A stretch of DNA of 63,981 nt, the filler included, from Candidatus Woesearchaeota archaeon (lineage in GTDB: Archaea > Nanobdellota > Nanobdellia > Woesearchaeales > WJIZ01): NCBI GenBank assembly GCA_018221205.1. It is 7 parts of 7 records of this genome, joined end to end, with 100 filler letters (N's around TTAATTAATTAA, not from the genome) between each part and the next. Parts side by side here need not be neighbours in the genome. Positions count along the whole stretch, not along the records: positions 15,235 to 30,637 come from JAAOYF010000051.1; 6 more parts are not named here. One strand, 5' to 3'. The notes beneath the pieces were generated by a model. It was not told the DNA's origin. It made no database searches and was given only the letters and a program-made list of their open reading frames with translations. The translations under genes were made by a program, and so were the position numbers. Of the stretch, positions 21,643-22,579 are shown piece after piece (the stretch's first letter is position 1; every line of letters begins with the position of its first letter).

Positions 21643-21680
21643 GAAATGCTTATAAATAGCCATTTACTTTCTTTCATCAT

Positions 21681-21781
21681 AGCGGGGTAGGGCAGCCAGG
21701 AGTGCCCGGAGGGCTCATAACCCTCAGGTCAGTGGAAGCAGATGGAGAGGCTGCTGCTGAATTCAAATCCACTCCCCGCTA
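21681..21781 (+). tRNA. Initiator tRNA-Met(CAT) with a 26-nt non-canonical intron at 53/54 (21736-21761)
   Basis: AGCGGGG/CCCCGCT acceptor with A1-U72, three G-C pairs in the anticodon stem, CAT at 21716-21718. BHB has a CAGT/GCTG helix with GG^A and AA^T bulges. Confidence 0.93.
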
Positions 21782-22501
21782 TTATCCTCTCCATTTCTTG
21801 ATTTTATTAAGGTGCTTTGGCGAATCAAACCCTATAAGATCGAGCCATTGCTGCAAGTTTTTTTGGCCATTTAATTCAATTCGATTAATCGTCGTGAACC
21901 CTCTCTCTATACGTTTATCCTTAACATTGTAATCGTAAATTTCAACAATAGAAAAACCCCATTTTTTGAGGAGAACCGAAACTTGCATAATAAGCATTTT
22001 ACTTTTGGATGAAAGGGTAATAACAGGATAATATGGCACTTTTCTATACTTCTTCTTAAATGAAATGCACCCATCAGTATCAAAAATTCCCTTTACTACA
22101 GATTTCGTGAATCTTTTGTTTTCAATAAATATATGAGGAATGTGAAGATTCAACCCCTTTTTACCTTCCCATAGGTTAAGTGTGTTCGTGAGGAAAATGT
22201 ATAAAGATTTTGAATATAAACGGAAACCATAAGTAGTCGAATTATCATGATATCTCATATTTGGTGAAATGCCAAAAAGATCTTTAACAATTGGATTCAA
22301 AATTTCATCATAAAACTGCATTTCGTCTTTTGGATTCCCTACACATTTTATTGAATACTCATTCTTGTAAGGACGGTACTGGATATTCCCATCACCGATT
22401 AAAATTCCGATGAAATAGGCCAGCTTAGTTGATAATGTAGATGGTAGAATGATTCCTCTTTGTTTATCTTTGTTGCTTAGAGGGTAAATTCTCAATTCCA
22501 T
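21782..22501 (-). CDS. Free-standing two-motif LAGLIDADG endonuclease
   Basis: LAYFIGILIGDG and VVKGIFDTDG; AT-rich; stop codon abuts the tRNA discriminator base. Confidence 0.9.
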   Translation of the reverse strand: MELRIYPLSNKDKQRGIILPSTLSTKLAYFIGILIGDGNIQYRPYKNEYSIKCVGNPKDEMQFYDEILNPIVKDLFGISPNMRYHDNSTTYGFRLYSKSLYIFLTNTLNLWEGKKGLNLHIPHIFIENKRFTKSVVKGIFDTDGCISFKKKYRKVPYYPVITLSSKSKMLIMQVSVLLKKWGFSIVEIYDYNVKDKRIERGFTTINRIELNGQKNLQQWLDLIGFDSPKHLNKIKKWRG

Positions 22502-22531
22502 TTTTTCTATCTAATGAGAAAGATGGAATTG
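22493..22531 (-). promoter_or_regulatory. Hairpin occluding the LAGLIDADG start codon
   Basis: CAATTCCAT/ATGGAATTG 9-bp stem includes the ATG; TATA-like TTTAAATA lies just upstream. Confidence 0.6.
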
Positions 22532-22558
22532 TATTTAAATTTACCCGTATAGACAAAG

Positions 22559-22579
22559 TTCAAATCCACTCCCCACTAT
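22559..22579 (+). repeat. Degenerate duplicate of the tRNA-iMet 3' exon
   Basis: TTCAAATCCACTCCCCACTAT versus 21762-21782 TTCAAATCCACTCCCCGCTAT (20/21). Confidence 0.9.

Follow-up and report, generated by a model that had tools for sequence, protein, structure and literature searches.

The window analysed here is a 63,981-nucleotide stretch of DNA from Candidatus Woesearchaeota archaeon (GCA_018221205.1), made of parts of this genome joined end to end. It carries a tRNA-iMet gene with anticodon CAT at 21681..21781 on the plus strand (A1 at 21681, A73 at 21781), which was read directly from the sequence and is undetected by ARAGORN and by Rfam. A probable TATA box, inferred from sequence and spacing, lies about 25 nt 5' of A1 (21650..21657, plus strand). 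The 5' exon, with positions 1–53 and the anticodon (21681..21735, plus strand), is followed by a 26-nt intron at 53/54 (21736..21761, plus strand) and by a functional 3' exon of positions 54–73 (21762..21781, plus strand) that was delimited through sequence, repeat comparison and RNAfold. The intron splits G53 from T54 and has a relaxed form of the BHB claimed for it in a first-pass annotation of this DNA: all four pairs of the central helix are present (21730–21733 with 21756–21759), five pairs form the intron helix (21737–21741 with 21751–21755), and the BHB scoring step returned 4 and 3/3 for this intron. A tRNA splicing endonuclease is encoded on contig C31 of the host genome, so that both the relaxed BHB at the junctions and the enzyme expected of an archaeal BHB tRNA intron are present. 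RNAfold returns a cloverleaf with an insert in the T arm (z of -1.39, an energy that by itself is not significant). In the 1.28 Mb genome, which is 94.8% complete, the 5' exon and the intron each occur once, and this is the sole tRNA-iMet copy found.

The intron loop (21742–21750) is complementary at 9 of 9 bases to the trailer just 3' of the tRNA (21786–21794). At loci with a 53/54 intron (L021–L231) the mean run of loop-trailer pairing is 5.58, against 4.37 for permuted pairs, a value reached by none of 200 permutations; at one of them (L070) both loop and trailer are fully changed in sequence and the pairing is kept. This pairing was looked for at all intron positions and holds for 53/54 only. 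The evidence as to strand consists of 13 A-C against 5 G-U flanks, counts that are inflated by kinship.

The nuclease gene, its promoter and the stranded tRNA end

Convergent with the tRNA is a free-standing gene for a two-motif LAGLIDADG protein of 239 amino acids (21782..22501, minus strand), whose stop codon adjoins A73, the discriminator base, as the first-pass annotation had described. The open reading frame matches PF14528 (E 2e-9) and has a GC content of 33% against 42% for the genome. Its named homologues come from Woesearchaeota and Nanoarchaeota, and the host is Woesearchaeota-like; a search of viral contigs for a carrier between cells returned a single weak match (38% over 99 amino acids). 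The predicted structure (mean pLDDT 96.6) combines the two helices and their acidic metal-binding residues with the alpha-beta saddle fold of LAGLIDADG homing endonucleases, and in fold it comes closest to the TliVMA intein endonuclease, I-Tsp061I and I-DmoI, the last of which is also found by a sequence profile of the family. The acidic catalytic positions D37 and D143 are intact, among 120 homologues D37 never varies and D143 is conserved to 90% or more, and 84 of 86 proteins derived from the loci have D or E at both sites, the other two being without the N-terminal part in the alignment. The protein looks like an active two-motif monomer. It shares this fold with I-DmoI, I-Tsp061I and PI-PfuI (17–22% identity, query-normalised TM-score 0.55–0.67), but those enzymes are encoded within the intron or intein that they mobilise, whereas this gene lies outside the 26-nt intron and on the opposite strand, and so is not an intron-encoded endonuclease.

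Beyond the nuclease gene lies a stranded tRNA 3' end (22558..22579, plus strand), made up of G53, positions 54–73 with one change at position 70, and one flanking base. The repeat comparison confirmed the copy of the 3' exon noticed earlier, with 20 of 21 bases identical between 21762–21782 and 22559–22579, and only these two copies exist in the whole 1.28 Mb genome at three or fewer mismatches. The accompanying claim that homology begins at the splice junction stands for the exact repeat only, as identity extends left to G53 (22558), which is preceded by 15 bases (22543–22557) that resemble tRNA positions 38–52 in register. The gene thus has the order functional replacement end, nuclease, stranded native end that characterises mORF-type elements. 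It is likely that the functional 3' exon was brought in by the cassette and that the stranded end is a remnant of the recipient's intron-less allele. Intron, exon, nuclease and promoter fill the 823-bp insert (21736–22558), in which there is no further open reading frame. The suggestion that no recombinase is present holds for phage-type integrases: a profile search of the 94.8%-complete genome, which a divergent recombinase could escape, gave no PF00589 match, and the tyrosine recombinase expected in or near an integrase-driven tRNA island is absent to that extent. A reading of the whole 823 bp as one large spliced intron was rejected, because the distal junction is without a BHB partner; the bases 5' of the distal copy are unable to pair as a central helix with positions 48–51.

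The promoter region of the nuclease gene contains a predicted TATA box (22532..22539, minus strand), called from sequence and promoter comparison, and an inverted repeat (22493–22505 with 22519–22531, minus strand) whose pairing would occlude the start codon when transcripts read through; relatives do not share its sequence. Overlapping the BRE side of this promoter is a pseudo-target (22543..22565, plus strand) that matches tRNA positions 38–41 and 53–60 in register, with a changed centre. When the outer blocks were used as the search pattern and the centre was left free, 11 loci scored above every one of 30 shuffles and another two were picked out by eye, representing 12 distinct loci, or 13 of the 84 loci with enough upstream DNA. 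Agreement with the tRNA ends outside positions 36–60, and the centre is conserved although the proteins are just 45–75% identical. An alternative promoter box, CACTGG, occurs at none of the 13 loci with the pseudo-target and at 28 of the 71 others. A profile built without this locus ranks its pseudo-target first in the genome (22.8 bits, the next at 16.2). At L023 and L038 the pseudo-target is separate from the stranded end, while here and at L155 the two are fused via positions 53–60; use of its right half as joining homology for the distal broken end would account for the start of identity at the splice junction. We infer from these comparisons that the pseudo-target is an uncleavable operator through which the nuclease would repress its own gene. 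Two other readings were dropped: the look-alike at 22543–22557 is not a neutrally decayed old tRNA, given its conserved centre and its separation from the stranded end at L023 and L038, and it is not part of a host regulon, the motif being unique in the genome.

Nuclease and intron among relatives

A DNA search for the tRNA gene in the 301 genomes of the order gave 262 matches in 238 genomes. The sample consisted of 130 of these matches taken from the best 150, which favours query-like genes and disfavours 5'-intron genes, and 123 scorable loci remained after the locus itself and six loci short of downstream DNA were left out. A member of the nuclease family (at least 90 bits) adjoins 11 of the 20 iMet genes that have an intron in the interval from 43/44 to 53/54 and none of the 103 genes without one (88 intron-less, 15 with other introns), counts whose significance is overstated since the interval was defined from the nuclease loci themselves and kin are non-independent. 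For position 53/54 alone, where the association had been predicted beforehand, the nuclease adjoins 9 of 16 genes with the intron against 2 of 107 others, in agreement with the prediction. It is absent from 7 of the 16 scorable 53/54 loci and from 9 of the 20 interval-intron loci. One intron-less iMet gene (L101) is accompanied by a distant LAGLIDADG gene (30% identity, 71 bits) that falls under the 90-bit threshold.

Linkage of the iMet locus to rnhB extends through the order, and intron-less alleles without the nuclease are the common state there. Such empty alleles had been expected in relatives and were found, also within the host's own family, in which one genome (G219) is intron-less and without nuclease, another (G301) has the 53/54 intron and the nuclease without a stranded end, and a third (G276) has introns at 45/46 and 59/60 together with the nuclease. 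The further expectation that intron, nuclease and duplicate come and go together failed, as shown by the nuclease-less 53/54 loci and by the rarity of the stranded end, found at about 6 of the 59 loci with the nuclease. Nearly identical introns at 53/54 are shared by 16 different families, and three nuclease-less 53/54 loci (L024, L027, L028) retain 20–35 bases that by eye resemble the last codons of the nuclease. Broken nuclease copies are common (L030, L196, L226, L227, L231), and the family, at more than 200 bits, is present in 18 of the 301 genomes; patchy distribution, empty orthologous alleles and decayed copies are all typical of LAGLIDADG homing endonucleases.

An alignment-based protein search of the same 301 genomes found a match at E 1e-45 in 25 of them, the host included. 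There are 18 matches above 200 bits, again including the host's own, of which 17 adjoin tRNA-iMet; an intron in the interval is present in 17 of these 17 iMet genes, and at L243 the 43/44 call has a weak score and runs together with a nested intron. The eighteenth adjoins another intron-bearing tRNA, and most of the seven weaker matches flank other tRNAs (by eye). Metagenomes supplied 80 nuclease loci, or 70 distinct scored loci after removal of 4 duplicates and 6 unscorable ones, and 67 of the 70 nuclease-adjacent iMet genes have an intron in the interval (L227, with two nested introns, was corrected by hand). In the three exceptions (L181, L222, L229), an intact-looking nuclease stands beside an iMet gene with introns at 29/30 and 37/38 only (L181), or the nuclease belongs to a separate clade that lies upstream of the tRNA (L222, L229). 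A further locus, L220, went uncounted for its low score and has by eye a divergent intron-less iMet gene.

Within the interval the intron classes are complementary: of 70 genes, 35 have an intron at 53/54 only, 30 at 43–50 only, two have both and three have neither, against 17.9 expected with neither, a comparison whose significance is overstated for the reasons given above and because the 43–50 class co-occurs with introns at 37/38 and 28–31, that is, in intron-rich lineages. Introns at 59/60 and in the D arm are independent of both classes. Members of this one nuclease family are found with introns at 43/44, 44/45, 45/46, 47/48 or 53/54, so one protecting intron appears to be needed and, as far as these comparisons indicate, any of several positions suffices; this would place the target site at about positions 38–60. 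The partner is exchangeable. On the nuclease tree the intron class switches 17 times where shuffled labels give a mean of 24.4, and several sister groups with support of at least 0.94 differ in class, which contradicts a cassette that moves as one fixed unit. A free-standing nuclease is here statistically coupled to an adjacent intron that encodes no nuclease, a pattern expected of collaborative homing. The gene itself has flipped and changed sides while keeping to the same tRNA, as seen in a clade that lies downstream on the same strand (L093, L161, L164, L171, L178, L180, L181, L184, L224) and in another that lies upstream (L211, L215, L216, L222, L223, L229). Several tRNA-iMet genes (L164, L168, L194, L200, L202, L210, L219) have four or five introns each.

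Distal DNA is long enough at 59 distinct convergent loci, and a stranded 3' end was scored in 7 of these, six of them clear, including the present one, and one doubtful (L231); L192 also carries one, on a contig too short for this count. The stranded pieces at L023 (from position 49) and L038 (from position 46) have an intron-less T arm with compensating pairs of their own, unlike the active gene. The stranded end at L155 is intron-less across 53/54, and those at L056, with its own T-stem pairs, and L192 are intron-less across 59/60. Since these copies represent old, intron-less alleles, the intron at those loci probably arrived with the nuclease or the incoming end. A duplicate of some kind is also present at 14 of 93 intron-less loci without any nuclease, and therefore proves little by itself; the stranded duplicate is a scar and no standing part of the element. 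In contigs of sequencing runs X1 and X2, which break within the tRNA, an empty allele with the same flanks was not seen. The reverse event is visible at L116:455-1450 (minus strand), where an intron-less tRNA-iMet gene is followed by an unrelated 830-bp insert and then by a stranded intron end, 3' exon and trailer. At eight intron-less loci (L039, L054, L060, L062, L065, L067, L068, L144), short hairpin-rich inserts, possibly REP- or MITE-like, lie about 90–120 bases past the tRNA end between duplicate copies of the tRNA-iMet 3' end that start at about position 52–58.

A proposed mechanism and its alternatives

Taken together, these data make it probable that the locus represents an archaeal form of collaborative homing combined with end replacement like that of fungal mORFs, acting at tRNA-iMet. 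From its place at the 3' end of the genome's one tRNA-iMet gene, the nuclease gene would spread by homing together with a mini-intron that is spliced by the host and that likely renders its own tRNA allele uncuttable. The enzyme, with its I-DmoI-like two-motif fold and both catalytic acidic residues kept, would cut intron-less tRNA-iMet DNA at a site that covers about positions 38–60, centred near 45–50, a region in which the neighbouring tRNA nearly always bears an intron; the correlation suggests that several positions in it can serve. Repair of the break from a cassette-bearing donor would proceed via the 5' exon on one side and, between distant lineages, via short homology on the other, leaving the recipient's old 3' end stranded. 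A join within the eight bases common to the pseudo-target and tRNA positions 53–60 would make a recombinase unnecessary, and the pseudo-target at the TATA box may act as the uncleavable operator of self-repression. The range of states seen across loci is consistent with subsequent decay, of the stranded end and then of the nuclease, after which a non-canonical intron would be left on its own, still removed by the host splicing endonuclease.

The nuclease may alternatively be a sieve and not a vector, cutting intron-less sites while introns spread by other means, such that the gene survives beside alleles that are already immune. This is unlikely in our estimation, though much of the survey fits it: nearly half of the interval-intron loci (9 of 20) are nuclease-less, the nuclease tree shows frequent changes of partner intron (17, with a shuffled mean of 24.4), the stranded end is missing at most loci, many introns outside the interval also occur at nuclease loci, and the 830-bp insert at L116 brought an intron-less end, so that other cargo swaps tRNA ends too. 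What tells against it is that the old ends are intron-less across 53/54 (L023, L038, L155) or 59/60 (L056, L192), which suggests that the intron came with the nuclease, along with the remnants resembling nuclease last codons at L024, L027 and L028 (by eye) and the near-identical 53/54 introns in 16 different families.

Duplicated tRNA 3' ends at 14 of 93 intron-less loci without nuclease could also point to an integrase-driven element, now a relic, whose attachment site was the tRNA 3' end and whose left-over passenger is the LAGLIDADG gene, and a recombinase-bearing insert has been linked to tRNA intron gain in Caldiarchaeum (PMC3293823, in the text available). Such an origin is very improbable here, given that intron, exon, nuclease and promoter take up all of the 823-bp insert, that the genome has no PF00589 match, and that a passenger would neither follow one tRNA isotype (17 of 18) or a 10-position intron interval nor retain its catalytic residues. 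Least credible of all is a domesticated protein, a maturase-like helper or regulator that splices or expresses tRNA-iMet with T-arm introns: for all its tight adjacency and strong conservation, the presence of the maturases I-AniI and bI3 among the fold matches and the loop-trailer pairing at 53/54 loci, seven genomes carry the 53/54 intron without a family member next to it or, at E 1e-45, elsewhere, broken copies are common, and the gene is patchy within genera.

Collaborative homing at tRNA-iMet would make this locus a concrete candidate route for the spread of oddly placed archaeal tRNA introns. It predicts a target at about positions 38–60 and protection by introns from 43/44 to 53/54 but by neither 37/38 nor 59/60 alone, and target, protecting positions and operator could all be tested with one purified 239-aa protein. 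If the mechanism is correct, the view of introns as a protection of tRNA genes against mobile elements would be reversed, with the element itself bringing the shield. A broader proposition, in which non-canonical tRNA introns of DPANN archaea are gained in general through free-standing LAGLIDADG genes, is more tentative and may well prove too wide; each family would target one tRNA, recruit as immunity any BHB mini-intron situated within its recognition site, repress itself via a tRNA-mimic operator that doubles as landing homology, and then decay, so that lone odd tRNA introns in databases would be its leftovers.

Known systems and other cassettes of the host genome

The arrival route of non-canonical archaeal tRNA introns is called unknown or open in the accessible text of two studies (PMC4090602; 10.64898/2026.10.13.758758); the available part of the second, a 2026 preprint on Asgard tRNA introns, offers no general route and contains neither "homing" nor "LAGLIDADG". 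LAGLIDADG genes are described within archaeal group I introns in the portion of PMC6125680 that is accessible. In the open-access literature, supplements and subscription papers aside, no description of a pairing between nuclease and tRNA intron was found.

Comparison suggests that the iMet cassette works like phage collaborative homing and is built like mORF hybrids, being neither an intron-encoded enzyme nor an integrase island. Collaborative homing, in which a free-standing endonuclease lies beside an endonuclease-less intron, is reported from T3/T7-like phages, a cyanophage and ICP1 (PMC10448857, as far as its accessible text goes). As there, the gene lies outside but beside the intron, the predicted cut coincides with the intron insertion region and joint acquisition would be expected; unlike there, the setting is a cellular archaeal chromosome with a tRNA target, a LAGLIDADG enzyme and several intron positions, and the intron is a protein-spliced BHB intron of 20–40 nt instead of a self-splicing one. 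The mORF hybrids of fungal mitochondria, described for atp6 of Allomyces macrogynus and for atp6, atp9, cox2 and nad3 of Glomus in the available text of PMC3630166, likewise have a free-standing endonuclease that brings a replacement gene end and strands the native end without a recombinase. Their targets, by the same account, are protein genes, with immunity provided by a diverged replacement end, whereas a tRNA target is hardly free to diverge and immunity here likely comes from the intron.

Further parallels concern regulation and genomic setting. According to the accessible part of PMC2988022, I-TevI represses itself through an operator that resembles its homing site and is controlled by a hairpin; here, too, a target look-alike overlaps the nuclease's own promoter and a hairpin may bury the translation start, and T4 SegB is likewise a free-standing enzyme among tRNA genes. 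Both of these, unlike the present protein, are GIY-YIG phage enzymes, the SegB target is a tRNA intergenic region, and the operator proposed here is a predicted one. The tRNA-Thr gene of Caldiarchaeum gained introns through a 1.8 kb insert with a putative recombinase, found in six places (PMC3293823, in its available text), and resembles the iMet locus in having a mobile insert between an intron-richer active tRNA and a stranded tRNA fragment. That insert differs in encoding a recombinase and in its 1.8 kb size, and the word "homing" is absent from the accessible text of the paper.

The host genome (G000) yields 11 PF14528 matches that correspond to nine genes, since the gene on C40 is matched twice and C38/C74 hold two pieces of one gene. 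By eye, seven of the nine abut or overlap intron-bearing tRNA genes, which is weak evidence alone because most tRNAs of this genome bear introns, and at least three others of the seven are accompanied by stranded 5' or 3' fragments. The six further tRNA-linked genes are on C39, C46, C63, C72, C74 and C38/C74, and several of their open reading frames end inside the tRNA; stranded fragments are visible at the 5' end on C39 and at the 3' end on C72 and C74. The end-replacement design of the iMet cassette recurs in the same genome at the 3' end of ppsA (L002:1366-2541, contig C1) and at the 5' start of metK (L009:185-1190, contig C40), in both cases beside a stranded copy of the gene end that has diverged. 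No intron was seen in either cassette, and they would be direct counterparts of the mORF hybrids as these are presented in the accessible literature.

Upstream of four of the LAGLIDADG genes (C46, C63, C72, C38), about 18 bases 5' of a TATA-like box, lies a CACTGGAC box that also precedes host genes on C19, C25, C27, C48, C52 and C65, several of them nuclease- or DNA-binding-like by eye; it possibly marks a host DNA-repair regulon used by the cassettes. A related imperfect hairpin, BHB- or REP-like by eye, occurs in the leaders of the LAGLIDADG genes on C1, C38, C39, C46, C72 and C74 and at L093.
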